Source of the DNA: an uncultured delta proteobacterium
GTDB lineage: Bacteria; Desulfobacterota; WTBG01; CAIYCZ01; CAIRTM01
Direction of reading: 5' to 3'
DNA: 64,000 bases
Assembly (NCBI GenBank): GCA_963804955.1
Contig: CAWDSQ010000007.1
Coordinates: forward strand, 352,001-416,000
Part shown: piece by piece, positions 24,074 to 64,000 of the stretch
Layout: the number at the start of each line of letters is the position of its first letter
How positions within the stretch are numbered: the first letter of the stretch is position 1
Program-made: the position numbers and the translations under genes
Notes under the pieces: model-generated
The model's database searches: none
The model's input: the letters and a program-made list of their open reading frames with translations, nothing else
What the model was told of the DNA's origin: nothing

Positions 24074-24119
24074 TTGACAGCAGCATGGAAACAATGATAG
24101 TAGTATTCCATATGAATAA
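24074..24119 (+). promoter_or_regulatory. promoter with 17-bp palindromic operator
   Basis: TTGACA at 24074-79; GTATTC-catat-GAATAA at 24103-24119. Confidence 0.55.
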
Positions 24120-24261
24120 TACATTCTAAAGACATACTCTCTTACAAGAACGCTACCGTTTAAACAATAACCATTTTACAGACAAGGGAAAAAACATATG
24201 CGACACCGCCGCAACACTCACTGAGGAGCAGCTCTATAATGAAATTATTGAGTATCTTGAA

Positions 24262-24744
24262 ATGAATAATATATGCACCCTGGCATTTGCGTACAGCAAT
24301 GTTCCCCGTGCGACCCCTGTTGAATACCGTAATGACGGGGCCAACATCTATGTTGTCTCTGAAGGGATGAGTCATCAGATGTATGCAGCAGGACAAAAAA
24401 ATAAGGTTGTGGAGTGGAAAAAAATGTTTATCGAACGAAACCCTCTCTGCTCCGTAGGTCTTATCTCTCCGTACTTCGGTTTCAAGTCAACACGCGGTCT
24501 GCGGATATGGGGGCGCGCGCAGGTCTTCCACAAAGGAGATGCGGAATGGGGAAAAGGCTGCGAGCTGCTGCATGTTGCAAGGAGCCTGCCTGATTTTAAT
24601 CAGACGGAAATCCCTGACTTTCTCATAGTCATTAAAATTGTACCGGAAATGATGCAGTATTTTAATCTGCCCAGGGGTATTAAGCGTGCCCGGTGGTTAG
24701 CTCCCGGAGTAAACCCCGACTCATGGAACTGCCCCTGGGAATAA
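24262..24744 (+). CDS. pyridoxamine 5'-phosphate oxidase-like split-barrel flavin/heme-binding protein; the true start may be upstream
   Basis: ICTLA..NVPRATPVEY, NPLCSV and RGLRIWGRA. The open frame extends upstream (LTEEQLYNEIIEYLE) to a TAA at 24127. Confidence 0.75.
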   Translation: MNNICTLAFAYSNVPRATPVEYRNDGANIYVVSEGMSHQMYAAGQKNKVVEWKKMFIERNPLCSVGLISPYFGFKSTRGLRIWGRAQVFHKGDAEWGKGCELLHVARSLPDFNQTEIPDFLIVIKIVPEMMQYFNLPRGIKRARWLAPGVNPDSWNCPWE

Positions 24745-24821
24745 TTGAAACTGATAAGCCCTCACTTCGGAATGGGCAGAATAGAAATGAAGGATGATGG
24801 TGTGCCAGGGTTAGAGCATTT

Positions 24822-25214
24822 TTAAGGCTTCGAATGCTGCAACAGATTGAGCCGCAGGGAGGTCATCAGCGGATAAAGCAGTTCATGGGTTTCTCTCAAT
24901 AAAACGCTGCCCAGCTTGGTTAACATATAATATTTCCTTTGAGCACCTCGGGCTGAAGGTTCCATGTGACTTTTCAGCACACCATCGCTTTCCAGGGAGC
25001 GCAATTTTTTATACAGATTATTCCTATCGATATCAAAGCCGCCTCTTGTCTGTTTAAGAATCTCCGCCTTGATCTCGTAAACATATTTCGGGCTTTCGCT
25101 TATGATGACGAGAGTAATAAATTGCAAAAAGCCTCTTTTCAAATCAAAGACTATCTGGTCGTGGTACTTTTCCTTGATTTTCTGCTTTGGCATTTCAACT
25201 TTTTTATTTTTCAT
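24822..25214 (-). CDS. PadR-family transcriptional regulator
   Basis: LKRGFLQ, YVYEI, LYKKLRSLESDG and RKYYMLTKLG. Confidence 0.9.
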   Translation of the reverse strand: MKNKKVEMPKQKIKEKYHDQIVFDLKRGFLQFITLVIISESPKYVYEIKAEILKQTRGGFDIDRNNLYKKLRSLESDGVLKSHMEPSARGAQRKYYMLTKLGSVLLRETHELLYPLMTSLRLNLLQHSKP

Positions 25215-25672
25215 AGTGTTCCCATCATATTTTTTAATTCGATAAAAAAACTCCCTGCCCGCTATACCGAATTTATTTTACCATACGTATTGTGATTTTG
25301 TATATATTTTTAAAGGCTGCAGGCAAACAACGCCGAAAAACCCGCATGAAATAAGCATTGGGCAGGTTGCGCCCTCGGTGCATCAGCAAACATGCCGTTG
25401 CAAATCTCTGGTATTGCGTATTATGACAGATGGGCATTCTGCCTGTGCGGCACTGGCATTTGCATATCACAGGCGTTAAATATCCGGCTATAAGTATTCT
25501 TTGAGCAGTTCGCCGGTGCGGACAAGCATTAATATGCCCGGAACAGTCGGCCTTTGAAGCTCCCTGCGGGCAGAGGGTACTGTGGTAATAATAACTTTTT
25601 TATTGACACAAAAGCTTAACGGTATTATTCTAATACATTATTACTTAATAAAAATTTATTACAGGAAGTCCT

Positions 25673-26047
25673 ATGATTTCAGATCAAAAAATAATTGAAA
25701 AACATTTGCAGCAATTGCTCTTTGATATAAAGCGCGGTTTTTTGCAGTATGTTGTCCTGTCGCTTATTGATCAGGGGCCCCAATACGCTTATGAAATCAA
25801 AGAAAAAGTATACGCTGTAACAGGAGGCACGTTCGATATCGATCGCAACAACCTGTATAAAAAGCTAAGAACTCTTGAGCATGAAGGGATACTGAAAAGC
25901 CTTGAAAAACCTTCGGATCACGGCGCTAACAGAAAATATTATTCACTTACCCCTTTTGGCAAAAATTTTCTAAAAGAAGTCTCATCCCTGATGCAGCCTG
26001 TAATAGAATCATTCTATAACCGCATGCGGGATCTTGATATTGGCTGA
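25673..26047 (+). CDS. PadR-family transcriptional regulator (paralog)
   Basis: IKRGFLQ, YAYEI, LYKKLRTLEHEG and RKYYSLTPFG. Promoter TTGACA-17-TATTCT at 25603-25631. Confidence 0.9.
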   Translation: MISDQKIIEKHLQQLLFDIKRGFLQYVVLSLIDQGPQYAYEIKEKVYAVTGGTFDIDRNNLYKKLRTLEHEGILKSLEKPSDHGANRKYYSLTPFGKNFLKEVSSLMQPVIESFYNRMRDLDIG

Positions 26048-26302: not shown

Positions 26303-26363
26303 TAAATTGCGGTCTTTCCAAAAAAAACAATTGTTTACCTGTTCACATTTTGAAAGAACAGCA

Positions 26364-27689
26364 ATGAAGCAAAAATATGATCTCGTAGTAGTTGGGGGCG
26401 GCACATCGGGGCTTGAAGCGGCGAAAACCGCCGCACAGAACGGTTTAAAAGTTGCCTTGATTGAGCGAAAAACAGACCCGGCAAAGATTCAGCGATCATG
26501 CGCTCAGATGTTTCTCTTGAATATGGATTCCTTCTACAATGAGCACATGTATTTTTCCCGCGAGCAGAAGCGGTGGGTTTTTCCGGTAAACAACTTTTCC
26601 GTTAATTATCCGGGGGATTACCGCGAGTTTTATGCGCTCCATTTCACAGCACCCAATGGCGTTGACCGTATTGAAATCGGCGATTACGAAAAAAATGCTT
26701 CCGGAAAGGGTGTGCCTGCTGTTGTTTTTGACAAAGGCGCGCTGCTTGGCGGACTTTATGCGGAAGGCCGGCAGGCGGGCGTGGATTACTATCTGGGCCG
26801 CAATGTGGTGGATGCCCGAAATACATCGCAGGGGGTACGCGTGAAAACCGCTGAAGGGGATTCTTTGACAGGGTCCTTCTGTATCGCTGCCGACGGTATT
26901 AACTCAAGACTTGCAAGAATTTCCGGACTGAACCGTGACCGGGTGTTTATCAATACCGGCCGCGCCAACAGTTATTATATTACCGGGGTTGAGTTTGAGC
27001 GTTCTGAAATGATCGCCCTGGGCCTCTGTTACGGCCCGGGTCAGCTGGGTACGATTATGTTCTGCATGCTACCCAGTGTTTACCGGAAAGATGAATACTG
27101 GCTGTATATTCAGGGCAAGGAACGGCTTGAATATCTGACCCGGCAAAGCAACTACCGGCACTGGTTTAAAAATGTCGAGATTACCCATGAACGCTGTGCC
27201 GTGGTGAGCAACTGGAGTCCGGCCAAAGAACCTTTTAAGGATAATATTATATTTGTCGGAGACAGCTGCTGGTTTGCGGAAGCGGAAAATACCGGCGCCC
27301 TGCTGTCAGGGCATAAAGCGGCAAATGCCGTGTGTGCAGCCCTTCATACGGGGCAGGTAAGCCGTGAAGGGGTAAAGGATTATATTGACTGGTGGCAGAA
27401 GAACTGGGCGGAAACCCATGATTATAAAGAATTTGTCATGTATCCGGTATTTAACCGGCTGTTTAATGAAGAAGAACATAACTACCTGCATAAAATCATT
27501 GACACGAAGCTTCCCTGGACCATGAATCCTTTTTTGATGTACCGGGGCCTCAGTGAAGGCTTAAAACCTCATCTGGATACCATACGAAAAGAACGTCCGG
27601 TTATTGCCAAAAAAATCGAAATGTTTACACCGGAAATGGCGGCTTTGCTGATGAGTAAAGCAAGCAGGATGGGATATCCCTGCTATTAA
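26364..27689 (+). CDS. geranylgeranyl reductase/FixC-family FAD-dependent oxidoreductase
   Basis: YDLVVVGGGTSG, IAADGINSRLAR and FVGDS. Confidence 0.85.
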   Translation: MKQKYDLVVVGGGTSGLEAAKTAAQNGLKVALIERKTDPAKIQRSCAQMFLLNMDSFYNEHMYFSREQKRWVFPVNNFSVNYPGDYREFYALHFTAPNGVDRIEIGDYEKNASGKGVPAVVFDKGALLGGLYAEGRQAGVDYYLGRNVVDARNTSQGVRVKTAEGDSLTGSFCIAADGINSRLARISGLNRDRVFINTGRANSYYITGVEFERSEMIALGLCYGPGQLGTIMFCMLPSVYRKDEYWLYIQGKERLEYLTRQSNYRHWFKNVEITHERCAVVSNWSPAKEPFKDNIIFVGDSCWFAEAENTGALLSGHKAANAVCAALHTGQVSREGVKDYIDWWQKNWAETHDYKEFVMYPVFNRLFNEEEHNYLHKIIDTKLPWTMNPFLMYRGLSEGLKPHLDTIRKERPVIAKKIEMFTPEMAALLMSKASRMGYPCY

Positions 27690-27755
27690 TAATTCCAGGA
27701 ATAATTGAGGGCATCCGCAGGTAAAAAATTTAAACAACTTATCAAGCAGATAAAA

Positions 27756-28046
27756 ATGAAAAAACAAGCCCCTACAGCATTTGGATCCGTTATCCCCATT
27801 ACTGAAAATTTTCAAAAAAATGATGACTGGCGTTTTGAAAGACCTGTATGGGACACAGAGAAGTGTGTCCGGTGCGGCATATGTTATGTGTCCTGCCCGG
27901 ACGGCGCCATTTATCAAAATAAAGACGGATACTATGAGGCGGATTTACAGTACTGCAAGGGCTGCGGTCTTTGTATCCGGCAATGTGTTACAGGATGCAT
28001 ATCACTGGAAATAGCTGTAGAACGTGCTCCGTGGCTGGCTAAATAA
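27756..28046 (+). CDS. PorD-like 2x[4Fe-4S] ferredoxin (2-oxoacid:Fd oxidoreductase delta subunit)
   Basis: DWRFERPVWDTEKCVRCGICYVSCPD and DLQYCKGCGLCIRQC. Confidence 0.85.
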   Translation: MKKQAPTAFGSVIPITENFQKNDDWRFERPVWDTEKCVRCGICYVSCPDGAIYQNKDGYYEADLQYCKGCGLCIRQCVTGCISLEIAVERAPWLAK

Positions 28047-28069: not shown

Positions 28070-28999
28070 ATGGATAGGTTCTCAGTATTTGCACCAAAAA
28101 TTTTACCCCGTCAGGAACGCTTTCTTAGTGGAAGGCGGTCCTGTAAGGGATGTGCGAAATCCCTGGCCGCGCGGCTTGTTTCCAAAATATCCGATTCCGC
28201 TGACCCTGCACTGGGTGGGCTAAACGGTCAAAATGACGGGCTAAGCGCAAACAGCTTTTCACATGACCGTGTCACTACGGCAGATACGCTTGAAAAACTT
28301 ATTTCAAGCATAGACAGCTTTAATGAAAAGTCTGCCAGGCAGTCCCGGACAGCGCATGTGCCGGTTAAAAAGCCGGTCATTGCAATTGACCGGAAAATAC
28401 TAAATACGGATTACGTTGTGCTTCAGCGCATTTTAAAAAATAAAAATGTCGTGATTGTCTGTTTCGACAATGAACCCGCAATTGATTCTCTGATCCGCAA
28501 AGCCATTCCCCGGCCATTTGTCCACAATGATAGAAACCACCCGGTTACCGGGAAGGATGTTAGGGCTGCCGTGCGGGAAAAGAACATCCCGGCAGTCATG
28601 GCCAAAGAAGATTTCGCATACATTGCAACGGCCTGTCCCAGCTATCCTTTCGACCTGATTGAAAAGGTTCGCCAGGCCCGGAAATGTTCCGCTAATGCGT
28701 TTATTTTAGTCATGACACCCTGCCCTACCGGATGGATGTTTGCTCCGAACCAGACACTTACTGTCGGCCACCGTGCAGTCTTAACCGGATACTTTCCGTT
28801 GTTTGAAGTTAAAGACGACAAGATACGTCTAACCGTGCAACCGAAAAACCGCAAACCGGTTCAGGAATATCTGGCTCTGCAAAAGCGTTTTTTCACCTTT
28901 CCGCCGAGTCTGATACCTGCGCTACAGGCGGCCGTTGATGAATTTTATGATGACCTTCAAAAAACAGGAACAATCCATGAAATTGCCACGAAAAAATAA
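28070..28999 (+). CDS. degenerate PorB-like protein lacking the TPP-binding GDG motif
   Basis: SGRRSCKGC, VCFDNE, YIATACPSYPFDLIEKV, TPCPTGW, TGYFPLFE and PVQEYLALQKRF are PorB-like. The GDGG region reads AIDRKI. Confidence 0.75.
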   Translation: MDRFSVFAPKILPRQERFLSGRRSCKGCAKSLAARLVSKISDSADPALGGLNGQNDGLSANSFSHDRVTTADTLEKLISSIDSFNEKSARQSRTAHVPVKKPVIAIDRKILNTDYVVLQRILKNKNVVIVCFDNEPAIDSLIRKAIPRPFVHNDRNHPVTGKDVRAAVREKNIPAVMAKEDFAYIATACPSYPFDLIEKVRQARKCSANAFILVMTPCPTGWMFAPNQTLTVGHRAVLTGYFPLFEVKDDKIRLTVQPKNRKPVQEYLALQKRFFTFPPSLIPALQAAVDEFYDDLQKTGTIHEIATKK

Positions 29000-29453
29000 G
29001 GTTGATCAAATAATTGAAAATTACAAAAAAGACCAGGGCACACTGATTTCACTGCTTCAGGATATTCAGTCTGAGTTCGGCTATCTACCGAAGGACGTTC
29101 TGTCGTATGCAGGCGAATCAGCAAATGTCCCGCTCAGCAAACTTTTTGCTGTTGCTTCTTTTTATCATTCATTCAGCCTGGAACCCCGGGGGAAACACCT
29201 GGTCAGCGTATGCACAGGTACTGCATGCCATGTAAAGAATGCGGGCAACCTGGCGCAGAGCGTTTCCCGTGAACTCGGTCTTGAAAAAGATGAAGGCACC
29301 AGTGCTGACGGTACATTCACCTTAAAGAAAGTCCGCTGCCTCGGATGTTGCAGTATGGCTCCGGTGGTAAAAATCAATGACGATATCCACGGCGGCATGA
29401 CACAAGTCAAAACAGGAAAATTACTTCACCACTATAGAAAAGACAGCACATGA
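28977..29453 (+). CDS. NuoE/HydC/BamG-like [2Fe-2S] subunit
   Basis: LQDIQSEFGYLP, VCTGTACHVK and CLGCCSMAPV. Confidence 0.92.
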   Translation: MKLPRKNKVDQIIENYKKDQGTLISLLQDIQSEFGYLPKDVLSYAGESANVPLSKLFAVASFYHSFSLEPRGKHLVSVCTGTACHVKNAGNLAQSVSRELGLEKDEGTSADGTFTLKKVRCLGCCSMAPVVKINDDIHGGMTQVKTGKLLHHYRKDST

Positions 29454-31312
29454 TGAAGAGTAAAACCTTTACGCATCTGGAGAAACTGGAAAAATCCGGA
29501 CAGGCCTCGCTCTTCCCGAATCGAATCAAGATTACGGTGGGATTTGCTTCCTGTGGCGTTGCTGCAGGTGCACAGGCCGTCCTGAACGCTTTTACAACAG
29601 GAATCAAAAAACGCAAACTGGATGTTCAGCTACAAAAGGCCGGCTGCGGCGGCATGTGTCATCAGGAACCACTGGTTGATATCTGGATCCCCGGAAAGGT
29701 CCGTCTGACTTATGGCAAGGTAACCCCGGACAATGCACAGTCCATACTGGCTGCAATCAAATCGGATATGATTCCTGAAGGGGCTCTTTTTAAAACACCG
29801 TTAGGGCCATCATCCTGCTGTGAAGATGTAGGGGACACTACCAGCCATCCATTTTACCGGAAACAGCAGCGGGTAGCGCTTCGTAACTGCGGCGTGATCG
29901 ATCCTGAAAACATTAAGGAATATATTGCCCTTGAGGGATATCAGGGCTTGGCTGTTGCGTTGAGTGAAAAAACACCCCTGCAGGTGATCAGTGAAGTAGA
30001 AAAATCCGGCTTGCGTGGACGCGGCGGCGGCGGTTTCCCAACCGGATTGAAGTGGAAGACCTGCCGTAAAGCCAAAGGAAAACAAAAATATATCATCTGC
30101 AATGCCGATGAAGGTGATCCAGGCGCATATATGGATAGAAGCATCCTTGAAGGCGACCCGCATGCAGTGATTGAAGGTATGCTGCTTGCCGGTTATGCGG
30201 TTGGAGCATCCCGGGGGGTTATTTATGTAAGAGACGAATATCCCCTTGCAATCCAGCGCCTGGAGATTGCTCTTGAACAGGCGCGTAAAAACGGGATACT
30301 GGGCGATTCTGTCCTGGAATCCGACTTCAGCTTTGCTATTCGCATCAGCCGCGGCGCCGGGGCATTTGTCTGCGGCGAAGAAACGGCCCTGATTCAGTCT
30401 GTTGAAGGCGAGTGCGGTGAGCCCCGTCAAAGACCGCCATATCCTGCGGTTGAAGGTTTATACGGCTGTCCGACGATCATTAATAATGTTGAAACGCTGG
30501 CAAATGTATCCGCTCTGATAAAAAGGGGCGCCAGTCAGTTTTCAGCAGTTGGAACTGAAACCAGTAAAGGGACAAAAGTCTTTTCCCTGGTGGGGAAAAT
30601 AAACAACGTGGGACTTGTTGAAGTCCCCATGGGCATCACACTCCGTGAAATCATCTTTGATATCGGCGGCGGCATTCCCGGGGGTAAGGCCTTCAAGGCG
30701 GTTCAGACCGGCGGCCCGTCAGGCGGCTGTATTCCCGAACATCTGATCGATCTGCCGGTGGACTATGATGAACTGGCCAAAACCGGATCCATTATGGGGT
30801 CCGGCGGCTTGATCGTCATGGATGAAAAAACATGCATGGTTGATGTGGCCCTTTATTTTCTCAGGTTCCTTGAAGATGAGTCCTGCGGCAAGTGTACGCC
30901 CTGCAGGGTCGGCGTTACAAGAATGAGAGAAATTCTTGAGGATATCTGCGAGGGCCGGGGAACGGTCAAGGACCTTGCGCTCCTGGAAAAACTGGGCGGC
31001 ATCATCAAGGATTCAGCATTGTGCGGCCTCGGACGAACAGCACCGAACCCTGTTCTGTCGACGTTGAAATATTTTAAAAAAGAGTACCTGGCCCACATTA
31101 AGGACAAAAAATGTCCGGCCGGTGTATGCCGGGAACTTGTCACGTATTCAATTGACAAAAAGACCTGTATTGGCTGCGGCGCCTGTGTAAAGGCCTGTCC
31201 CACTGCGGCCGTCAGCGGGACAAAAAAGAAACCGCATAAGATCAATCAAAAAAAATGCATTAAGTGCGGCGCCTGTTCAGAGATTTGTCCTGTGGGCGCG
31301 ATAGCAACCTGA
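29450..31312 (+). CDS. NuoF/HydB/BamH-like NADH-binding FMN/Fe-S subunit (long, bifurcating-type architecture)
   Basis: N-terminal thioredoxin-like Fe-S domain, GLRGRGGGGFPTG, NADEGDPGAYMDR, GAFVCGEETAL, ESCGKCTPCR and a C-terminal 2x[4Fe-4S] domain. Confidence 0.93.
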   Translation: MMKSKTFTHLEKLEKSGQASLFPNRIKITVGFASCGVAAGAQAVLNAFTTGIKKRKLDVQLQKAGCGGMCHQEPLVDIWIPGKVRLTYGKVTPDNAQSILAAIKSDMIPEGALFKTPLGPSSCCEDVGDTTSHPFYRKQQRVALRNCGVIDPENIKEYIALEGYQGLAVALSEKTPLQVISEVEKSGLRGRGGGGFPTGLKWKTCRKAKGKQKYIICNADEGDPGAYMDRSILEGDPHAVIEGMLLAGYAVGASRGVIYVRDEYPLAIQRLEIALEQARKNGILGDSVLESDFSFAIRISRGAGAFVCGEETALIQSVEGECGEPRQRPPYPAVEGLYGCPTIINNVETLANVSALIKRGASQFSAVGTETSKGTKVFSLVGKINNVGLVEVPMGITLREIIFDIGGGIPGGKAFKAVQTGGPSGGCIPEHLIDLPVDYDELAKTGSIMGSGGLIVMDEKTCMVDVALYFLRFLEDESCGKCTPCRVGVTRMREILEDICEGRGTVKDLALLEKLGGIIKDSALCGLGRTAPNPVLSTLKYFKKEYLAHIKDKKCPAGVCRELVTYSIDKKTCIGCGACVKACPTAAVSGTKKKPHKINQKKCIKCGACSEICPVGAIAT

Positions 31313-31390
31313 CAGGATACATACTTGATTTATGAAACAGGAAGGGTTCCGGATAGCCGAATCTCTTCCTTATCTTCCCAAGGAGTTACC

Positions 31391-32152: not shown

Positions 32153-32192
32153 CCGGTAAGCACTATTAACTTAAAAAAACATTGGGTAGGTT

Positions 32193-32426
32193 ATGAAAGT
32201 AGATCGTGAAATATGCGTAGGCTGCGGAGCCTGTGTAAATCTCTGTCCGCGGTTGGCCATTCGTCTTATCGATGACAAGTCTTTTATTGATCAGGTTTCC
32301 TGTATCGAGTGTGGCACCTGCAGGGCTGGCTGCGGTGTGGATGCAATTTTCTGTGACTGCCGCTTTCCTGAAATACTCTTGCTTAATCTCACAAGCGATA
32401 CCTACGAACAAGGGGAGCGCTCATGA
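32193..32426 (+). CDS. 2x[4Fe-4S] ferredoxin
   Basis: CVGCGACVNLCP and CIECGTCRAGC. Confidence 0.9.
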   Translation: MKVDREICVGCGACVNLCPRLAIRLIDDKSFIDQVSCIECGTCRAGCGVDAIFCDCRFPEILLLNLTSDTYEQGERS

Positions 32427-34296: not shown

Positions 34297-34433
34297 CGCA
34301 GGATGCCTCAATGCAGGCGGCTTATGGAGCTGACCCGTTTGCCTGCTCTGTTATGGGGGACCGGGGAGCTTTCAACATACATAGTGGGATGAACTAACAA
34401 CCACTGAAACTGTTTTTTACAAAGGCGGTGCTT

Positions 34434-47753: not shown

Positions 47754-47768
47754 AACAAAACTCCCTGT

Positions 47769-50025: not shown

Positions 50026-50045
50026 TGGTAAGTAACCTTTCAAAT

Positions 50046-51901: not shown

Positions 51902-52004
51902 GAGATTTACCTTTTTCAGATTAGCTCGCTTCGCTTTTTTCTGCACATACAGTTTGTTTCACAACCTCTAGTCGATCAAGGCTGATGCACTGCCTGATTC
52001 CGGA

Positions 52005-54445: not shown

Positions 54446-54461
54446 AGGTAATTCCTTCCTG

Positions 54462-55743: not shown

Positions 55744-55773
55744 TTTATACCTCCTGTTTGGTTTAGCCCCGGC

Positions 55774-57289
55774 CTAAAAACAAAGCTTGCCGGGGTTCAA
55801 TACATTATTGGGATCGAATAGTGCCTTCAGCTGCTTTGACAGAGCCGTATGCTCGGGATTTCTACCATAGGCCATGTCTGACCAAATTCCGTATGGGCGG
55901 GTATAGAAGGCTCCCTGGTTTGACAGTTTTTCACTGGCCTTGGCGAACAGCCCCTGAACCATGGCTACCTCCTTCTCGTCGCCCGGATCATAGGGCAGAC
56001 TAAATTCCACATGGCAGCTTGTTCCCATGTGCGTCGGCTGAATATACATGCCCAGATCCGGTAGCGGATAGCTGGAGGCTTCCGCCAATTCGCTCATCGT
56101 CGCTGTGAACTCGGGCGCTCTGTTCAGTGTGGTGAGAAAAAAGATGTCCTGGCAGCCGCCCTTGTTGCGAAGTTTCCAGTACGGTTCTTTTGAGGGATTA
56201 AGCACTGCTTCCGCCACCTGTCCGCCTGTTGCCCCGGGAATTGCCGACTCCGGACGCACGTTACATTGCTGAGCTATATCGGTAATATCCTTTTCGAGAA
56301 ATTCAACCCGTTCCTGCGCAAGTGATGTCACGCCCGGTCACACCCAAAACGAGCGTCCACGGGGGCAACTCTTTGCGCAAGGACATAACCTGCTCAGTTT
56401 CTTCTCCCAGGAGAGACGCTAAAGCGGATCTGTTTATCAGCATTAATTCATCATGAAACCGTATCCGCAAGAGCTTATAAGCAAAGCCGATAAGAGTTTC
56501 AAGCCCATCAGCAGGCACCAGGAAAAACTTTTGAGCCTTGGGCAGCACTTCGCATCTCAGCGATGCCCAGGTGACAATACCCATGGTTCCCTGGGCTGCC
56601 GACACCAGTTTATGATAATTAAACTGCCCGGGGCCATATTGGTAGAGCGCCGTACCCTGTATTTTTTTTTGTTTTTCAAGCAGTTCTTCTATCGGGACGA
56701 GTTTCTCCTCCTCCCTGGTGGAGGTGCTGACACCGGCGCCGGCAAGCTCACCGGTCCGAAACATCTCTCCGTTGCCCATGACCGTTTCAATACACCGCAG
56801 CGGCTCATTCAGCGACCAGGCATACCGGGGGTTCGTTATCGGCTCTCGTTCCAAAACACTGCCCAGCACGGATTTAGTGGCACGCGGTTTCAATGGCATG
56901 GAAAGTCTCAGGCCTTGCTTGGCCAGTTCCGGCTGAAGCTGGCTAAAGGTCACCCCTGGCTCAATAAGAGCCACCCGGTTCCTCCGGTCCATCATGATAA
57001 TCCGCTTCATTCCGCTCAGGTCCACAATAACCGCCCCCTCTGAGGCGGGAACACTGTCGCCACGGAAGTGCGGCGGCCCTGAGCTTACCGGAACCAGCGG
57101 CGTTTTTGTCTGGTTGGCCCACTTTACTATACCCTGCACTTCATCGGCATTCTTAGGCCTTACCACCATCAGGGGCTTCCTTGACGGGACAAAGCTGTGG
57201 TCCCTGGAGTACTCATCCAATGTAGCCGGATCATCGATTACATTCTCCGCACCAACAATCTTTATGAGCTCATCTTTTTTTTCGGCCAT
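55774..57289 (-). CDS. FAD-binding oxidoreductase (GlcD/E-like); frameshift near 56320
   Basis: VVRPKNADEVQ, VDLSGMKRI, IEPGVTF, AQGTMGIVT and LFDPNNVLNPGKL. Confidence 0.88.
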
Positions 57290-57477
57290 GTATACCTCAC
57301 TGTATCCTCTGAAATTTTCTTATTCTTATCTGCGGCAGGGATCTAAAAAGCTATCGACAGTGCTTCAGTCCAGGCCAATGCAACCTGCAATGGATGCATT
57401 CGACATATTTAAACTTGAGAAATACACTTCGCCGAAAATATCCAGTTCGGGTCTGATACATAATTAATTTTTTATAT

Positions 57478-57533
57478 GTAGTCTCTAAGACTACATCTAA
57501 AGGGATTATAAGTTGATTTTTAAAACTTGTCAA
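57478..57533 (-). promoter_or_regulatory. consensus sigma70 promoter with perfect palindromic operator
   Basis: Minus-strand TTGACA (57528-33)-17-TATAAT (57505-10); GTAGTC-tctaa-GACTAC at 57478-57494. Confidence 0.8.
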
Positions 57534-57744
57534 GATAAAAATCCGGCAGGAACGCGTGCAGCGTTCTATAGTTTGTCTAAAACAACCCTGCATGACGGTC
57601 CTTCGAGTTACCCACAGAGACGGCTGCATGAAAAATCCGGATATACGCGGAGATTAATTCCGGGTTATTCCGGTCAACGCACGTTTTATTCCGGCTCAAC
57701 TTTGGGCCCCGGAGCATCATGGCCGGCTGGGGCAATTTTGTTTT

Positions 57745-57951
57745 CTACACCGGTGTTTGCATAAAAAGTTTCTGTACAAGTGCTTTTTCCCACAATCCCA
57801 TAAGCGTGCACCTTTCGGGCTTTGTATTTTCATAGCCGGCAAGAGCTGGTTTCATTTTCACAAGCGGTTTTAGCAAAACAACTTTTTGAACGAGGGCATT
57901 TTCCCACAATTTCATGAGCACAATGAGACTTTGCATGTTTATTTCCGCCAT
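57745..57951 (-). CDS. 68-aa protein with duplicated LMxLWExALVQK motif
   Basis: GGAGG RBS, its own promoter, and an internal repeat at both protein and DNA level. Confidence 0.55.
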   Translation of the reverse strand: MAEINMQSLIVLMKLWENALVQKVVLLKPLVKMKPALAGYENTKPERCTLMGLWEKALVQKLFMQTPV

Positions 57952-58022
57952 ACGGCCTCCTGTAAAAGTTACGGTGTACACAGATAATCTAAAAGCAGTG
58001 CAAAGCAAATGCTGCTGGCAAA

Positions 58023-58064
58023 GTATGCTTAAAGAATAATACCATTAACCTTATAGCATGTCAA
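58023..58064 (-). promoter_or_regulatory. promoter with operator overlapping -10
   Basis: Minus-strand TTGACA (58059-64)-17-TATTAT (58036-41); GTATGC-ttaaa-GAATAA at 58023-58039. Confidence 0.65.
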
Positions 58065-58799
58065 GAAAAACATGGGTGTTTTAGAGCCCCCGGATACCAT
58101 GACCAATAAGCGGCAGGGCGGTGGTTCACATTTCAAAAACAAACGCGCTCGTTTAATAATTCTTTATAAAAGCTGTGTTTTTTGAGGTTGTCATTTTAGC
58201 CGGCTGTTTTTACAGAGGTCCGGTCGAGAAGCACTGGTTAAAGCCATATAATATTTTGAAATTCAAACCATTTAAATATCGTAATAATACGAAGCCGGTT
58301 CCCTGTCAAGCTTTTTTTAAAATATTTTAATATATTCAGGGCCAGTGTCTGGAAGCGCCAGCCGGACGAGGCAGGCAGGTCAGGCGGGCTTTTTATCGCT
58401 GGTGATTAATCCCGGTTAAAAAATGGACCTTAGTAGAAACCGGAAAGAAACAGTACCATAATCAGAGGAATGGCTTTCGGCGGAGCTTTTTCCTGCTTGC
58501 TGTGCTTTCAGATCCTTCATCGGGCGTAAGTCTTGCGCGCACAGGCAGTTCCTGGCAGCCGTTTATAGCTACCATGGGAACAGGTTGCTTGATTCCGGGC
58601 GATGGGAAGGGGCATACAGTAAGCAAACGCTGCAATTGCATGCTTCAGACACAATCCAATCACAGCATGTCTCAAAGGAGCCGTCGGCGGCTCCGGGGCA
58701 AAGAGACTGTTCTTGCTTTACGCGTTAAAATAAACCACGGAATACTTGACTCCACCGGCATTTTTCTTATCCGTTATCTGCGCATACCCATGTGGCTTT

Positions 58800-59279
58800 T
58801 TATCGTGATCGTGTTATCCTGAAGCAGCACTCATTGTCGCCTGCGGGCTTATGTTTCATTCTTTCCCATTTTGCAACTTTGTATTTTCCCCCCAAAACAC
58901 AGTCCATATCACAGATAATCGGGCAGGGATCGGGCAGGTTGCGCTTCCTTGTTGCCTCAAGATGCGGACAGTGCTCAAGATGTTCATACCAGACCGGCTC
59001 GCCGTTTTCTTCACCCTTTTCTATCCATATTTTCCATCCGTTGGCGGGAAACATATCGATTTCGTACATCATGATATCGCCGATATCTTTGCCCTCAAAT
59101 ATCTTTATTCTTTTCTTAAAATTGGATTCAAACAAATCATGATAAATTGCTGAGCCTTTTTCTTGCCCGTAACAATCCAGAAGGTTTTGATACAGCAGGG
59201 GAAGCTTGAGGGCATTCTGCGCAACGAGCAAATCGCGCTGCTTTTCAATAGGCATTTCTTTCCCTATAACTTTTTCCAT
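58800..59279 (-). CDS. ATC-hydrolase/V4R-like four-Cys protein
   Basis: HCPHLEA, DPCPIICDMD and GDNECCFRI; AAGGAGG RBS. Confidence 0.7.
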   Translation of the reverse strand: MEKVIGKEMPIEKQRDLLVAQNALKLPLLYQNLLDCYGQEKGSAIYHDLFESNFKKRIKIFEGKDIGDIMMYEIDMFPANGWKIWIEKGEENGEPVWYEHLEHCPHLEATRKRNLPDPCPIICDMDCVLGGKYKVAKWERMKHKPAGDNECCFRITRSR

Positions 59280-59619
59280 ACACAATCCTCCTTGTGTGTA
59301 ATTATTTTTTATTTGGATAAGCGTGACGCCGCTTTTACAGATACTTCTCTCTGTTGACAGGGGCACATGTACGTGAGGCATGCAAAACATTACCGCACAG
59401 AGCTCGCCAGCCCTCGGTCAATCGAGGGAAAACGCCCCCAAAACACTCGCTTGTTTTTAAGGGCTCCACGACGTCAAGCACTTTGTCGATTTTATCTTCC
59501 GGTGTTATCGCCCTGAGCGCAGCAATTATATTTTCTTCCCGTATCGAACGGCCATCGCCAGCAGTATATTCTACGGCACGGGCTCCGCCGCTGCTGGCGG
59601 AGCCGCTCAAGGCTTGTCT

Positions 59620-59788: not shown

Positions 59789-60592
59789 TCATAATCCGAA
59801 CTCCCCGAGAAGATTCCGGGAGGCATATTCATCGGAATTAAATCTCTCTGCTGCCTTTTCATCGGTCAGCCAGTCGATTTTTGAGCCTGTTGTGGTATTA
59901 GACAATATATTCTCCACCAGAAACGGCGTTACGGTTTCAACCTTGTCTGCAAGTATATTGTAGATCATTCGAACCTTCTCATACTCTTCCTTAGGCATTT
60001 TCTTCATGTTTTCAATCAAAAAATCCGTTATCACGATACCGGGGCCAAGGGTGCCGACCTGAACAGGGGTTTCCGCAGTTTCCCTGACAAGGGATTCAGT
60101 AAAATATCTCAGGGCGCGTTTCGTAGTTCCGTAAACAGTAAATCCCGCCCGCATATTGTCATTGCTTCCCATGCCCTCCATATTATAAATCTGGCCCCCG
60201 CCCTGCCCCAGCATCCCTTGTAATGCGACATGGGTGCCGTACATAAGGCCAAGAATATTGGTATTGACGACTGCTGCAATCTCAGCAGGGTCAAGCTCCC
60301 AGTAGCGCACTGCCGTATTCATTATGCCGGCATTGTTGATCCATATGTCAACACGGCCGAATGAACGGGTCGCCTCATCCCATAAAAAGCGTGCCTGGTT
60401 GAGGTCGGTAATATCGCAGGGCACAGCTATAACGAACCCATCACCGAATTCATCAGCAAGCTTTTTTCGTTCTGCTTCCAGCCTTTCAGTGCCGCGGGCA
60501 CTGAGCGCCACCCGGCAGTTCCGTTTGAGAAATTCTCGTGCCAGCCCTAAGCCAATGCCCTGGCTGCTTCCGGTAATAACTACTGACTGCAT
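59789..60592 (-). CDS. short-chain dehydrogenase resembling chlorophyll(ide) b reductase (NOL/NYC1 subfamily)
   Basis: TGSSQGIG..LAREFL, DIWINNAG, TNILGLM, GGQIYNMEGMGS, YGTTKR, PGIVITDFL and NILADKVETV. Confidence 0.75.
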   Translation of the reverse strand: MQSVVITGSSQGIGLGLAREFLKRNCRVALSARGTERLEAERKKLADEFGDGFVIAVPCDITDLNQARFLWDEATRSFGRVDIWINNAGIMNTAVRYWELDPAEIAAVVNTNILGLMYGTHVALQGMLGQGGGQIYNMEGMGSNDNMRAGFTVYGTTKRALRYFTESLVRETAETPVQVGTLGPGIVITDFLIENMKKMPKEEYEKVRMIYNILADKVETVTPFLVENILSNTTTGSKIDWLTDEKAAERFNSDEYASRNLLGEFGL

Positions 60593-60731
60593 AATAAGCC
60601 CCCTGGTGATTTTTTAATCCTGTTACTACAGCGATCAAGAAAGCCTTAATACGCGAAAGTATGCGGCTGCAACAATGAATGCCCGGTCTTATACTTGTGC
60701 AAGCGTTTCCCGGTTCACATTGTATGGCTGG

Positions 60732-60781
60732 CATAATGCGAGAGGGAGCCCAGGGATCTCCTGGCTCCCTCTCGCATTATG
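60732..60781. repeat. perfect 19-bp inverted repeat (hairpin)
   Basis: CATAATGCGAGAGGGAGCC-N12-GGCTCCCTCTCGCATTATG. Confidence 0.85.
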
Positions 60782-60891
60782 TATGGCAACTTGAGCGGCG
60801 CAACAGCCAGACAGTTAACCAGTGATAAAAGTTTTATATTTCTCCTGTTGCAAACCCATAGCGCACACTGCTTTGAGCTTTAATTAAAACA

Positions 60892-63125
60892 TTACTGCTG
60901 AAGTTGATTTTTAGCCGCCCGGAGAACATATTTCGCCAGCAGCGGGCCAACCCCGGGATCATTATTGGGCGGTTTCCACAAGGCCCATGTCCCGGTATAT
61001 TGATTTTGTATCGGCTGATTTACATCAGGGGCTGACACGCTTTGATCATACCCCAGATGCCCCGTATTCGCAGACGTCATAGGCAAGAGAAGGATCCATG
61101 GCGCTGATCTTGGAAGTAAGTGCTGTTTGGCGCGGCGGCGGATACGGGCGCCCGTCGCTGCAGCCGCCCATTTCAAAACAGCACGGCTGTCCGCCGCAAG
61201 TCAGCATTGGCCCAGTTGCCCCAGTAATCAGCAAAGGGATGGCCTATGCCCGGATACGTTCCGGTATCTCCCGCAGCCCAATACAGCCAGTTTTTGAAGC
61301 CGATTTCTTTCGCAATCTGATTGGGTACTTCGACAAGATTCAGAACGGAATCGGTTGCAATCTGCGGAAATGCAACAACGACATGCTTTACGCCCCTGTT
61401 TTTCAAATATTCAAGGGCATCCCAGTACAAGTACCCCCATTCTCCCGAGGGTAATTGCTTAGTGCTCTGGTAGAGCCACGCATCGCCAAGATTCTCTCCG
61501 CGCATCTGCCGGGTTCTCTCAATAAGGCCATTTGCAGGGTTTAATGCTGGACGCCCCATCCAGGCGCCGATAATATTTCCCGGATTTATGCCCGGATGCT
61601 TCGCGAGCAGCTGAGATTTAATGTTCTGATTAACGATGAGCGTGTCATTGGTCTTTGGATCAAAAAATTCTTTATAATCATTAATTGGATGATTTAAAAG
61701 GATGACCCCCACATCAGCATCCGGCACATTCTGGTTTAAAACAGCTTCAATGCCCGTTACATGCATTGCGGCGAGCGCCGGATCAATGGCAACGGGATTC
61801 CCGGTGCCGTTGTCATAGGCGACGTTTGCATCTGTTGTCGGAAGGCCCAGCGTAGCGGTCCATCCGGCGGGTGCGGTGGGGAATGACCTTTCCATCAGAT
61901 TCGTGTAGTCATTTACCCAGATAAGAGGAATAGAGGTTGCATGTTCAGCATTCCACTTAGTAAGGGCCCTTTTTGACATCTGGATCACATCGTAGGTCTT
62001 TGAAAAGCGAACCCCGCCGACAACCAGATCAATGGCAATTATTTTCGTCACCCCTTGTTTCAGAAGCCGTTCCACCGGGCCATCAACATTATATCTTTGG
62101 GGATTACAGTCGGGCCAGGGCCCGCCGGGTTCCAGCTCGCCGCAATAGGTGCAGTTGTCTCCTGTGCCGGAGGGCGGCAGGTACATATACCGGGGATAGG
62201 GGTAGTGCTCGGTATCATCACCGATCATCCAGGCGGCCCAGTCATACACAAATGAAAGACCATATTCCTGGTTGAGCACTTGTTGCATGGCGTTCATTTG
62301 CTGCCTGGTGATTTCCATAAACGGGTCGGTGCCGCCAATCCGCTGATACTCGAATGCATATTTCAACATATACTGTACTGAGGTTTCCACCGTCAGAACA
62401 GCTCCCCACAATGAAGCATTATGTAAAAATAATTTATTAACCGGGTGATTCGGATCATAGGAAAATTGCTGCATGGAGGCATCCCAGACACCTTGCTGTG
62501 ACATCTCATCAAACCCGCCATGGACAACAAATAAAACACCCACCTTTTCATTACAAGCCCAATCACAGGCAGGCTGTCCGCTGCCGCCACAACCGGGCGC
62601 CGGGTCACACACATCGCCTATGCCATCACCATCGGCATCAAGCTGAGCGTAATTACAGGTGGCCGGACAATTGTCAACGTTATCAGCATAATAATCATTG
62701 TCTGTATCAACCTGCCCTTCACAGCTTGTCTGGCCGCACCCGCCGCCGCAACCGGGCGTGCTGTCGCACGCATCACCTATGCCGTCACTATCGGCATCAC
62801 GCTGAAGGGGATTGGCAATGGCCGGACAGTTATCATAATAATCAGAAATTCCGTCGGTATCTATATCAAAAGACTCGCAGACAGGCTGGCCGCAGCCGCT
62901 GACGAGGCCACAGCCGGGGGTTAGATCGCACACATCACCTGTGCCGTCCAAATCAGCATCCAGCTGAAGGGGATTGGCAATGGCCGGGCAGTTATCGATG
63001 GCATCATCAATGCCGTCACCATCACTATCGGCAGCCCATGAAACCCCCTGCCCGATAAAAATAAATAAAAATGAAGCTGCTACGGCCAGGGACTTGAGTG
63101 TTTTTCTTAGCCCGGTTTCTCTCAT
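60892..63125 (-). CDS. secreted protein: thrombospondin type-3 Ca-binding repeats plus class II chelatase-like domain; frameshifts near 61200 and 61070
   Basis: Signal peptide; D.DGDG..D..DNCP...N..Q.DAD.DG.GD.CD repeats; [29 protein letters not shown] and [24 protein letters not shown]. Confidence 0.65.
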
Positions 63126-63190
63126 AACTGGTTTCCTCCTTTTGAAAATTTATTGTTTTCGCCAAGGGGCGTTGAGCTTGAATTAAGGCC

Positions 63191-64000
63191 TTACTGCTGC
63201 AGTTTATTCTGCGCAGCCAGCAGCACATATTTAGCCAGCAGCTTGCCAACCCGGCGATTATCATTGGGCGGCGCCCACATGGCCCAGGTCCCGGTGTACT
63301 GATTTTGCACGGGCTGATTCACATCGGGAGCGGAAACGCTTTGATCATAGCCCAGGTGCCCGTACTCGCACACGTCATAGGCAAGAGAAGGATCCATGTC
63401 ACCGCGCTTGGAGCCAAGTGGCGTTTGGCGAACCGGCGGATACGGGCGTCCGTCGCTGCACCCGCCCATTTCAAAGCAGCATGCCTGTCCGCCGCAATCC
63501 GTATCGACCCAGTTGCCCCAGTACTCAGCAAAGGGATGGCCTATGCCCGGATACGCTTTGTCATCACCGGCAGCCCAATACAGCCAGTTTTTGGCGCCGA
63601 TTTCTTTGGCAATCTGATTGTGTACTTCGACAAGGTTTAAAACGGAATCGGTTATAATCTGCGGGAAGGCAACAACGATATGCTTTACCCCCCTGTTTTT
63701 CAAATATTCAAGGGCATCCCAGTATACGTACCCCCATTCTCCCGAGGGCTTTTGCTTATTGCTCTGATAGAGCCATGCATAGCCGAGGTCCTCTCCGCGC
63801 ATTGCCCGCGTTCTCTCCACCAGGCCGTTTTCGGAATTTGTTTCTTTGACCCCCATGAAAGCGCCGATAATATTTCCCGGATCCAGGTCAGGGTGCTGCT
63901 GAATCAATCGGGATTTAATGTTCTGGTTGAGAATAATTGTATCGTCAATCTTGGGATCAAAAAACTCATTATAATCATTGATCGCATGATTAAGAAGCAG
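63191..64000 (-). CDS. tandem paralog of the chelatase-like protein (5' part outside the window)
   Basis: Near-identical C-terminal region ([56 protein letters not shown]). Confidence 0.75.
   Translation of the reverse strand: MLLNHAINDYNEFFDPKIDDTIILNQNIKSRLIQQHPDLDPGNIIGAFMGVKETNSENGLVERTRAMRGEDLGYAWLYQSNKQKPSGEWGYVYWDALEYLKNRGVKHIVVAFPQIITDSVLNLVEVHNQIAKEIGAKNWLYWAAGDDKAYPGIGHPFAEYWGNWVDTDCGGQACCFEMGGCSDGRPYPPVRQTPLGSKRGDMDPSLAYDVCEYGHLGYDQSVSAPDVNQPVQNQYTGTWAMWAPPNDNRRVGKLLAKYVLLAAQNKLQQ

Follow-up and report, generated by a model that had tools for sequence, protein, structure and literature searches.

What is the function of a gene island in which relatives of bilin reductases and of ferrochelatases stand beside an envelope transporter and a long row of reductases? 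The question is raised by a stretch of 64,000 nucleotides (the window) from an uncultured delta proteobacterium (assembly GCA_963804955.1, contig CAWDSQ010000007.1, positions 352,001 to 416,000; G000:C7:352001-416000 in our numbering). The island starts at a drop in GC content from 0.54 to 0.42 at about 24 kb and covers about 47 kb, from 24.2 kb of the window to about 7.4 kb beyond the window end (about C7:423.4 kb). An earlier note on this DNA, made from its letters alone, had read the region as an anaerobic system for the uptake and catabolism of tetrapyrroles. We find that the island is one copy of a lineage-specific, multi-copy system and that a link to tetrapyrroles is plausible, with more behind it than chance; the details borrowed from the plant pathway are not supported, and reductive transformation fits better than catabolism. 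The reading that we favor, with a confidence somewhat short of even, is uptake and ferredoxin- and flavin-driven reduction, perhaps with demetallation, of exogenous tetrapyrroles or bilins, a substrate that we infer.

Bilin reductase-like genes and their ferredoxins

Three genes related to ferredoxin-dependent bilin reductases (FDBR) had been predicted in the island, and all three are present. FDBR-like gene 1 (35833-36570, + strand) is intact, encodes 245 amino acids (aa) and scored 42.3 bits against the Pfam model Fe_bilin_red (PF05996), which has a cut-off of 31. Its product matches a plastid bilin reductase in the PDB (6qwq, E 9e-6, phmmer), and orthologues at 57-94% identity occur in 7 contigs of metagenome-assembled genomes (MAGs). 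The other two genes are frameshifted in the window and were recognized by tblastn through intact orthologues in a genome of the same genus, L031. FDBR-like A (48926-49707, - strand) aligns in four pieces, 82-90% identical, to a 260-aa orthologue (L031:1621-2403) that scored 48 bits, over the cut-off, the window piece itself reaching 30.5 bits; FDBR-like B (48223-48907, - strand) aligns to a 240-aa orthologue (L031:2419-3141) that scored 20.5 bits.

Ferredoxins adjoin these genes. Two stretches at first taken as intergenic, 32153-32422 and 47478-47768, encode small ferredoxins: one of 77 aa just upstream of the flavoprotein gene GGR-B (32193-32426, + strand), with Cys motifs and kept in L022, L025 and G011:C2, and one of 68 aa (47547-47753, - strand) with two Cys motifs, whose L032 orthologue scored 32 bits against Fer4. 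Together with a 2x[4Fe-4S] ferredoxin (27705-28046, + strand; Fer4 41.5 bits), these bear out the ferredoxins that the earlier note had listed.

In the whole genome there are 11 Fe_bilin_red matches, 8 of them over the cut-off. One is a fusion of 329 aa (G000:C20:76598-77587; L006:1015-2004) that joins a 2x[4Fe-4S] ferredoxin domain (Fer4 53.6 bits) to an FDBR-like domain (48.3 bits), and a 55%-identical copy of it adjoins a chelatase-like gene of family A2 (below) in G018:C4. This fusion and the small ferredoxins flanking the window copies fit, on genomic grounds, with ferredoxin-driven catalysis. Another type (G000:C32:76082-76861; L003:1378-2157) carries an N-terminal hydrophobic helix, judged by eye, and lies directly beside an RND transporter set, a position kept in bacterial families f1 and f4. 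The best match of the genome, full length at 115 bits (G000:C22:17101-17853; L037:7101-7853), lies outside any RND island. Its neighbors are a GDSL lipase, an FMN reductase, an ABC/FtsX exporter, a polyprenyl synthase fragment, a methyltransferase and a YceI protein, with no heme oxygenase, V4R protein or globin near it.

One alignment column is acidic in 8 of 8 FDBR-like paralogues (Asp in 7, Glu in 1), about 15 residues after an (L)P(I/V)(F/L) strand. We read this column as the putative equivalent of the central catalytic Asp, which is Asp105 of PcyA in the numbering given in the part of PMC10151467 available to us. According to the accessible part of PMC13446030, point changes switch FDBR-fold proteins from binding linear to binding cyclic tetrapyrroles, so the fold would leave room for a role on macrocycles.

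Two ferrochelatase-fold families

The earlier note had also called three class II chelatase-like open reading frames (ORFs), and structure models, which Foldseek matched to ferrochelatases, confirm the call at the level of the predicted fold. The first gene (38712-40121, - strand) encodes a cytoplasmic-type protein of 447-469 aa, which we assign to family A2 (about 480 aa). It scored 26.3 bits against the Pfam model Ferrochelatase (PF00762; cut-off 27) and 27.3 bits in a six-frame scan, and many A2 homologues carry a precomputed PF00762 label. The family has 426 relatives at E<=1e-5; the 119 other matches listed are 62-98% identical. An AlphaFold (AF2) model of A2 (pLDDT 89.5, pTM 0.89) was compared with the PDB by Foldseek, and the matches at ranks 1-44 were all ferrochelatases (E to 2e-9, target-normalized TM 0.6-0.7), followed by SirB, FetB and periplasmic CbiK. 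Within the A2 alignment His285 (TVHGMP) and Asp375 (ENSDTL) are invariant, the His standing after the first strand of domain 2 and the acidic residue in a D/E-T-L helix motif. Variants of His183 and E343, which we take to be the catalytic residues of ferrochelatase, are named in the titles of the matched PDB entries. Alignment with E. coli HemH by hhalign covered 45 columns of domain 1 only, with no significant match, and a plain pairwise alignment was misled by the internal duplication of the domain.

The other two genes are a tandem pair of family A3 that continues over the window end. The first (60892-63125, - strand; ORF 61173) encodes an exported protein, its leader judged by eye, with thrombospondin type 3 repeats (TSP_3 72.3 bits) and a frameshifted C-terminus; it scored 21 bits against Ferrochelatase, and an intact orthologue of 743 aa, P0121, is 96% identical. 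The second (63191 to beyond 64000, - strand, continuing to about C7:416854) is 72-74% identical to its neighbor. Family A3 has 674 relatives. Its fold was taken from the model of a 68%-identical homologue, P0122 (pLDDT 88.2), for which all 44 Foldseek matches at E<=0.001 were ferrochelatases, and a protein language-model search also pointed to ferrochelatase. Two His residues of the family are invariant, H37 and H317, each standing after the first strand of its domain.

Sequence searches of the PDB gave nothing useful for the 38712 and 61173 proteins (for the latter, TSP3 repeats only) or for the A2 and A6 profiles, and hhalign detected no sequence relation between A2 and A3 (61173). Going by the models, the ferrochelatase fold occurs here in two separate families, both strongly conserved, of which one is cytoplasmic and the other exported. 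No canonical ferrochelatase was found in the genome.

Paralogous islands and conservation

Tblastn of the window proteins located at least five further islands built of the same parts in this genome, so that the island is one of at least six. On C14 a row runs through a PadR gene, the RND set, an exported chelatase-like gene, an FDBR-like gene and a PNPOx gene, with an OYE-family reductase and an NmrA-like protein upstream. C5 carries alpha/beta hydrolases, the RND set, PNPOx, FDBR-like, A2 chelatase-like and flavodoxin-like genes; C22 the RND set, GGR paralogues in a run and a second PorB-like/NuoE/NuoF/HoxU set; and C20 VAO/CCG, GGR and SDR genes, an ATC_hydrolase gene, the ferredoxin-FDBR fusion and a second FDBR-like gene. 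The RND set stands with the membrane-anchored FDBR-like gene on C32, and on C30 an orphan protein gene with a twin-arginine (Tat) leader lies beside an FDBR-like gene. Two proteins of the C14 region (G000:C14:205001-225000; L034) gave side matches: the OYE/FadH-family protein has as its best NCBIfam match "bilirubin reductase, long form" (398 bits vs 750), tied with BaiCD, and a 286-aa protein matches PCP_red (protochlorophyllide reductase C-terminal) weakly (24.7 bits vs 32.5).

Clustering of these parts within the genome exceeds chance. The surroundings of the FDBR-like matches to a distance of 15 kb make up 6.7% of the genome and hold 5 of 7 chelatase-fold, 4 of 6 DUF1302, 5 of 9 DUF1329 and 3 of 3 Tat-leader orphan genes, copies in one island not being independent in these counts. 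In five genomes, by a count made by eye, 9 of 25 DUF1302 genes have an FDBR-like gene within 15 kb.

The families that the earlier note expected to find together do co-occur elsewhere. In L025, whose FDBR-like protein is 64% identical, nearly the whole gene order is kept. A stretch of 20 kb in G011:C2 holds FDBR-A, FDBR-B, the 135-aa orphan that follows them, the RND set, a third FDBR-like gene, A2 and the hydrolase, and also a ferredoxin, both Tat-leader orphans, A3, PNPOx, GGR-B and HoxU. FDBR-like genes adjoin the RND set and GGR in family f4, VAO/CCG and the RND set in f5, and A2, GGR, SDR, VAO/CCG and PNPOx in f2. FDBR-like genes beside transporter, chelatase-like and reductase genes thus recur in four bacterial families.

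FDBR-like matches are present in 31 of 41 relatives, this genome included, at 6-22 per positive genome. By family they occur in 15/16 genomes of f1, 4/4 of f2, 10/10 of f4 and 1/1 of f5, with 0/8 in f3 and 0/1 in f6; the A2 profile, found in 32 of the 41, follows the same family pattern (f3 0/8, f6 0/1). Of 151 genomes sampled evenly over the phylum and scanned at E<=1e-5, 5 were FDBR-positive, all of them from f1 or f2, and none of the 146 genomes from 71 other families had a match. This pattern is that of one or few gains and is not statistical proof of a functional linkage.

The envelope gene set and the direction of transport

Where the earlier note had seen an import system for hydrophobic solutes, Pfam matches give a run (41154-47477, - strand) of DUF1329 (frameshifted), DUF1302, an MMPL/HAE3 RND transporter and a BNR/Ycf48-like propeller, all four families adjoining; the set itself is there, with import as its putative direction. 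Five or more paralogous sets exist in the genome, with repeats on C5, C14, C22 and C32. In the parts of two studies available to us (10.1101/072470 and 10.1101/2020.07.04.188060) the four genes show cofitness and are needed on fatty esters, they are present in phenanthrene and p-cresol islands, and Price et al. proposed that they export a cell-wall component.

That proposal opens the way to an endogenous role: the bacterium would make, modify or export a pigment, a cofactor or an envelope lipid of its own, with an RND set that works outward and FDBR- and chelatase-like proteins that serve a tetrapyrrole-derived cofactor pathway or envelope maintenance. The names of the matched RND/MMPL models, HpnN, MmpL3 and BstA, belong to relatives that move lipids outward, and since the genome is without a canonical ferrochelatase the chelatase-fold proteins could be biosynthetic. 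We nevertheless consider this role decidedly improbable. There are six or more islands, all of them with a transporter of their own and some with a PadR or sigma-54 regulator. They look more like substrate-specific utilization loci than like a single biosynthetic pathway, and such multiplicity would match the range of chlorins, porphyrins and bilins that detritus contains. No hem, cob or ahb genes turned up in Pfam scans of the window ORFs, the A3 proteins are exported and carry extracellular-type repeats, and heme oxygenase (PF01126) had 0 matches at E<=1 in the 87%-complete genome, which leaves no endogenous source of bilins.

Reductases, electron supply and the comparison with plants

The remaining enzymes of the island are mostly reductases and their electron supply. 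The first of two GGR-family FAD flavoproteins, GGR-A (26307-27689, + strand), opens a run that continues with the 27705 ferredoxin, a PorB-like orphan beta subunit of the 2-oxoacid:ferredoxin oxidoreductase type (28070-28999, + strand; NF008819 150.7 bits vs 405, no Pfam family) and a Bfu-type NADH/ferredoxin module (28935-32152, + strand). In this module NuoE-like, NuoF-like (with a C-terminal ferredoxin domain) and HoxU/NuoG-N-like subunits adjoin one another and keep their cofactor domains (2Fe-2S_thioredx 157.9, Complex1_51K 164.9, NADH_4Fe-4S 110 and Fer2_4 68.6 bits), in line with the NADH/ferredoxin electron module of the earlier note; GGR-A is the probable substrate reductase of the module. 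GGR-B (32423-33736, + strand) has orthologues in L021, L022, L025 and G011 and is followed by a PNPOx-type split-barrel flavoprotein (33751-34296, + strand; PNPOx_N 34.8 bits vs 28.1).

On the other strand, an expected electron-transfer flavoprotein (ETF)/FAD/CCG module is present as well. It consists of the ETF alpha and beta subunits (50903-52796, - strand; ETF 132 and 134 bits, ETF_alpha 109 bits) and, at 52793-57289 (- strand), a VAO/GlcD-type flavoprotein of 562 aa, a frameshifted CCG/Fe-S protein and a second, frameshifted VAO/GlcD-type flavoprotein (FAD_binding_4 66.8 and 72.5, CCG 55.5 and 51.1, FAD-oxidase_C 29.4 bits). Paralogous VAO/CCG sets lie on C7, C20, C22, C24 and C30. A further small, frameshifted CCG-domain protein (49830-50111, - strand) was recognized by tblastn to L032:2539-2910 (CCG 66.7 bits).

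Several of these families had been counted as independently tied to tetrapyrroles, and together they would make up a bacterial, anaerobic counterpart of plant chlorophyll breakdown, with a NOL-like chlorophyll b reductase, a dechelatase, a dephytylase, a ChlP-like reductase of the phytol chain and a step like that of the reductase for red chlorophyll catabolite (RCC). Each of these fold classes is represented, and the chelatase and FDBR folds are confirmed. An alpha/beta hydrolase whose gene has a frameshift separating the leader from the catalytic domain (40180-40936, - strand; Abhydrolase_5 166.7 bits) agrees with the exported hydrolase of the earlier note; its leader piece, 40622-40936, is N-terminally hydrophobic by eye, and the hydrolase has paralogues in the C5 and C14 islands. 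The RCC_reductase model (PF06405) gave weak matches of 16-18 bits on FDBR-A and the C20 fusion.

The plant-specific assignments are not supported. RCC_reductase stayed under its cut-off of 24.9 bits everywhere (best in the genome 17.6 and 14.2 bits, FDBR-A orthologue 18), and the RCC-reductase call finds support at the level of the general superfamily only. Both GGR proteins belong to their family, distantly (TIGR02032 66.9 bits each, cut-off 158.8), and find no support as ChlP: the BchP/ChlP model TIGR02023 gave 29.3 and 19.1 bits against 343.3. What had been called NOL-like is a classical SDR (59789-60592, - strand; adh_short 135.7 bits) whose best NCBIfam matches are generic and under cut-offs. 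One of the two split-barrel calls, at 33751, stands, and the other is a weak PNPOx-like protein at the island edge (24262-24744, + strand; PNPOx_N 17.4 bits vs 28.1), whose paralogues adjoin FDBR-like genes on C14 and C5; neither gave a HugZ-specific match, nor did the alpha/beta hydrolase match a dephytylase specifically. Three supposed V4R-like proteins are absent, with 0 six-frame matches in the window at E<=1 and none in Pfam ORF scans at E<=5, the sole genome match of V4R (PF02830) over the cut-off lying at C1:110216. The Stay-Green dechelatase was not found in the genome. RCC itself arises from an O2-dependent ring opening, and this step has no analogue here; in agreement with the earlier note, the Pfam scans of the window ORFs showed no photosynthesis or phytochrome family, and no heme oxygenase was found in the genome. 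With V4R absent, and with the SDR, hydrolase, GGR and PNPOx proteins generic, the many tetrapyrrole-linked folds shrink to two robust ones, FDBR and the chelatase fold, each present three times in the island. We regard a plant-like pathway as highly improbable.

In another explanation the substrates would be other greasy unsaturated compounds (such as isoprenoid quinones, carotenoids, polyprenols, steroids, polyene or aryl-polyene lipids, or fatty esters), with FDBR and chelatase folds recruited as C=C reductases and binding proteins and most of the chemistry left to GGR-, VAO- and OYE-type reductases. The GGR family is the most expanded part of the system: tblastn with GGR-A (26307) matched 24 further segments of the genome at E<=1e-5, of which many lie on C22. 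SDR, alpha/beta hydrolase, aldehyde:ferredoxin oxidoreductase and VAO-type enzymes would fit the chemistry of isoprenoids or lipids, divergence among the FDBR-like paralogues is very high, one of their types (on C32) has a membrane helix, and the literature on the envelope set, as far as available, ties it to fatty esters and to phenanthrene and p-cresol islands. Against this stands the recurrence together of FDBR and ferrochelatase, the latter as two families: these are unrelated, tetrapyrrole-specific folds, and their company is hard to explain if neither touches a tetrapyrrole. The His and acidic motifs of the chelatase-fold proteins are, moreover, invariant, and we know of no characterized FDBR or class II chelatase that acts on anything but a tetrapyrrole. 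We consider substrates of this kind somewhat unlikely.

Regulators, orphan genes and other features of the stretch

Two divergent PadR-family regulator genes lie at the head of the island (24822-25214, - strand, PadR 55.4 bits; 25673-26047, + strand, PadR 63.1 bits); a paralogue of the former heads the C14 island and an orthologue of the latter the syntenic L025. A palindrome shared by the promoters, proposed in the earlier note, was not recovered. Its best candidate, AAACAA-N7-TTGTTT, is exact only at 38036 and 50279 and at 0 of 35 other loci, orthologous ones included; the 11-mer ATTATTACTTA occurs in two promoters only, a number that 14 of 100 shuffles reach, and is not kept in L025; and no 10-base k-mer is common to three or more intergenic regions.

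Upstream of FDBR-like gene 1 lie two paralogous orphan genes (34428-35776, + strand) for proteins of 229 and 220 aa with twin-arginine leaders (RRQF and RRNF motifs, by eye). The proteins are 40% identical to each other, a third copy being the one beside the C30 FDBR-like gene, and share a conserved P-Y-x-H-x-F-N-D-A-L-V-K motif. This family is rare: a search of 1.84 billion representative proteins gave only 49 matches at E<=0.001. No relative of it was found in Pfam or the PDB, and no family member matched a relevant Pfam family. The ESM Atlas offered leads to DUF6144 (0.90) and ATC_hydrolase (0.89), and BLASTP against the ATC_hydrolase protein of the window found nothing. That protein (58800-59390, - strand; PF14196 37.8 bits vs 28.1) has a paralogue directly upstream of the C20 ferredoxin-FDBR fusion.

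A third orphan, of 135 aa, follows the FDBR pair (47772-48176, - strand); it is 87% identical to L031:3157-3564 and keeps this place in G011. Pfam, NCBIfam and PDB gave no match for it and hence no support for an SCP2-like identity. Two smaller genes complete the island within the window: a flavodoxin-like protein with an N-terminal hydrophobic leader, by eye (37170-37850, - strand; Flavodoxin_5 28.8 bits), with paralogues in the C5 and C22 islands, and a small putative lipoprotein (38339-38650, - strand; lipoprotein-type leader by eye), with orthologues in L021 and L027. Upstream of the VAO/CCG/ETF genes a low-GC stretch of about 1.5 kb (57290-58800) has no convincing ORF; a short CCG-protein-like remnant lies in it at 57448-57549.

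Beyond the window end the island continues with the rest of the second exported chelatase-like gene, an MFS transporter, and an aldehyde:ferredoxin oxidoreductase with a further GGR-family paralogue (G000:C7:419114-423390; L033:4114-8390), and ptsI, dnaG and rpoD come after its far end. Positions 1-23.7 kb of the window are housekeeping genes (FtsH, TilS, PdxJ, FolP, RmlA, RmlC). Among the genes outside the island, at 10993-13197 (- strand), an Abhydrolase_3 esterase (236 bits) has a secondary Chlorophyllase match (30.6 bits vs cut-off 26), and an adjoining MFS transporter a secondary PucC match (26.4 bits vs cut-off 21); both are probably generic superfamily echoes.

The genome has 4.26 Mb in 36 contigs and is 87% complete, and its closest public relatives are labeled as uncultured Deltaproteobacteria or Thermodesulfobacteriota MAGs. 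Compared by contigs, near-identical DNA (0.21-0.46 of sampled words) was found in 17 runs from 16 studies, labeled freshwater or sediment metagenome (13), hot-springs (1), unspecified (2) or unlabeled (1); the best-matching run may be the source sample, and runs with small shares were not used for habitat. In one run labeled as a metatranscriptome, short contigs of 90-99% likeness fall on GGR-B, PNPOx, a Tat-leader orphan, FDBR-like gene 1 and the A2 gene, uncovered parts in RNA-labeled runs being uninformative. DNA carry-over is possible in such a run, so this is a weak hint that relatives express the island genes.

A possible mechanism and its difficulties

The folds, gene order, paralogy, conservation and phyletic restriction described above are demonstrated, and from them we infer reaction steps, a substrate and a direction of transport as follows. 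The substrates would be tetrapyrrole-type pigments, that is bilins, chlorins, porphyrins or their esters, from detritus in anoxic freshwater or sediment. The exported chelatase-fold proteins, which carry calcium-binding repeats, may bind or demetallate the pigment in the periplasm or outside the cell, where the leader-bearing alpha/beta hydrolase may also cleave an ester tail. The DUF1302 barrel, the DUF1329 LolA-like lipoprotein, the BNR propeller and the RND pump would then carry the greasy molecule through the envelope. In the cytoplasm the metal center would be handled by the A2 family, in which the active-site motifs of ferrochelatase appear with their His and acidic residue; the cofactor-free FDBR-like enzymes, fed by the adjoining small ferredoxins, would reduce conjugated C=C bonds; and the GGR-family and PNPOx-type flavoproteins would reduce further double bonds. 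Electrons would come from NADH through the NuoE/NuoF/HoxU module, which is of Bfu type and possibly bifurcating, and pass from or to the ETF/VAO/CCG module. The net effect might be that the pigment serves as an electron sink or is prepared for breakdown. Reductive transformation fits the island better than catabolism does, because its content is mostly reductases and electron supply, with nothing like ring opening or carbon catabolism.

Several observations weigh against uptake and reduction of tetrapyrroles. The sequence links of A2 and A3 to ferrochelatase are weak (26.3 and 21 bits against the cut-off of 27, hhalign probability <1%), and the likeness of TVHGMP and ENSDTL to SYHGIP and DCLETL of E. 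coli HemH was matched by eye on motifs. FDBR-like B falls under the Fe_bilin_red cut-off even in its intact orthologue (E 4e-4), and the paralogues of the genome are only 15-24% identical to the window copy, so that the FDBR substrates may have drifted away from tetrapyrroles. FDBR-A and FDBR-B carry about 12 frameshifting indels of 1-2 bases in 1.5 kb relative to the L031 orthologue, which are errors or decay; 47.7-50.1 kb is broken into many short frames, and the same genes are intact in L031. Assembly error is the likelier explanation, because the dihydropteroate synthase gene (folP; Pterin_bind; 13925-14813, - strand) is also split into two overlapping frames, which suggests single-base indel errors across the assembly, and many tblastn matches of window proteins elsewhere in the genome come in consecutive pieces.

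Other difficulties lie in what surrounds these genes. Apart from FDBR and chelatase, the families of the island are generic, and most of what is known of RND pumps of this kind concerns export. For the four-gene set, the proposals are export of an envelope component on one side and use of fatty esters on the other (10.1101/072470 and 10.1101/2020.07.04.188060, as far as available). The genome holds no ring-opening enzyme of the kinds sought, with no heme oxygenase, no Stay-Green protein and no ChuW/HutW over the cut-off: the best match to TIGR04107 (cut-off 400 bits) reached 152.8 bits, a HemN-like level, and lies outside the islands. No classical heme or corrinoid receptor is present, and no CoA ligase or beta-oxidation genes turned up in Pfam scans of the island ORFs. 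Phyletic co-occurrence, finally, is weak as independent evidence, since it reflects mostly a single split between clades and shared history.

A bolder version of the tetrapyrrole reading can be called "pigment respiration". A clade of uncultured Thermodesulfobacteriota of freshwater and sediment would live partly on dead pigments, and every island would be dedicated to the import of a particular type of chlorin, porphyrin or bilin. Removal of the metal would fall to chelatase-fold enzymes working in reverse, the conjugated system would be the terminal electron acceptor, and a new Bfu-type complex would couple NADH oxidation to the reduction of C=C bonds, by the GGR-like and FDBR-like enzymes, and of ferredoxin. 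We think it quite unlikely that the system goes this far. If it does, it would be the first oxygen-free turnover route for chlorophyll- and phycobilin-derived tetrapyrroles in sediments.

Comparison with known systems and significance

The nearest described relatives of the FDBR-like proteins are FDBR that include the pre-PcyA of non-photosynthetic bacteria, which share PF05996 and are likewise small, cofactor-free and found in heterotrophs (accessible parts of PMC10151467 and PMC13446030). According to the same sources, pre-PcyA genes cluster with heme oxygenase, two V4R proteins, an Fe-S protein and a BBAG globin, or with a B12-binding protein and a globin. The island, in contrast, is without these partners: there is no V4R in the window, no heme oxygenase in the genome and no globin family in Pfam scans. 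Ferredoxin genes adjoin the FDBR-like genes here, and one copy is fused to a ferredoxin. Pre-PcyA has been reported in other phyla and in Myxococcota, and a term search for "Desulf" in the text of these two papers available to us gave nothing, whereas the present 6-22 FDBR matches per genome are in anaerobic Thermodesulfobacteriota-type MAGs, beside transporters and reductases.

A2 and A3 share the two-domain chelatase fold with HemH/CpfC, SirB, CbiK and FetB (Foldseek E about 1e-9, TM 0.6-0.7). They are longer, at 480 and about 580-740 aa compared with about 310-360 in known class II chelatases, they lack the context of a heme or cobalamin pathway, and A3 is exported with thrombospondin-type repeats; a dechelating or binding role may be proposed for them. 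BilR is the gut bilirubin reductase. ChuW/ChuY, cited in PMC10151467 for anaerobic heme degradation, and BilR likewise handle heme-derived tetrapyrroles reductively and without oxygen, but by radical SAM or OYE enzymes, whereas those of the island have the FDBR and chelatase folds; the C14 OYE protein, with "bilirubin reductase, long form" (NF045599) as its best NCBIfam match, is under the cut-off.

The electron module resembles the Bfu (HydABC-type) family, in which a row of NuoE-, NuoF- and truncated NuoG/HoxU-like subunits has extra subunits for a third substrate, a Por-Bfu type is predicted and 18 of 57 clades are uncharacterized (Schut et al. 2022, PMC9304861, in the part available). The extra subunits here, the orphan PorB-like protein, the ferredoxin and the GGR-family flavoprotein, form a type not met in that part of the paper, and bifurcation by such a complex would be a prediction from its subunits. 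The envelope set has the same four adjoining families as in Proteobacteria (10.1101/072470, 10.1101/2020.07.04.188060), where, in the accessible parts of these studies, function and transport direction are unsettled even in model organisms. Unlike the Proteobacterial set, the present one is multiplied to five or more copies and tied to FDBR-like genes.

As a gene system the island matches nothing described, as the earlier note had supposed: full-text searches, evaluated at the level of titles and abstracts, found no such system for bilin reductases in the phylum or for anaerobic chlorophyll degradation genes. The remains of chlorophyll, heme and phycobilins are among the most abundant colored organic compounds that reach anoxic sediments, and their derivatives serve as geochemical markers; we know of no genes for the oxygen-free turnover of such sedimentary pigments. 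A clade-wide, multi-copy system that rests on the only two enzyme folds otherwise dedicated to tetrapyrroles gives testable candidates for it, namely the FDBR-like reductases of about 245 aa, two new chelatase-fold families and a possible new type of bifurcating reductase. It would add to the chemistry known for two superfamilies, the FDBR and the class II chelatases, and it bears on the origin of bilin reductases before their photosynthetic use. Should the substrate not be a tetrapyrrole, the recruitment of both folds to other chemistry would itself be new.

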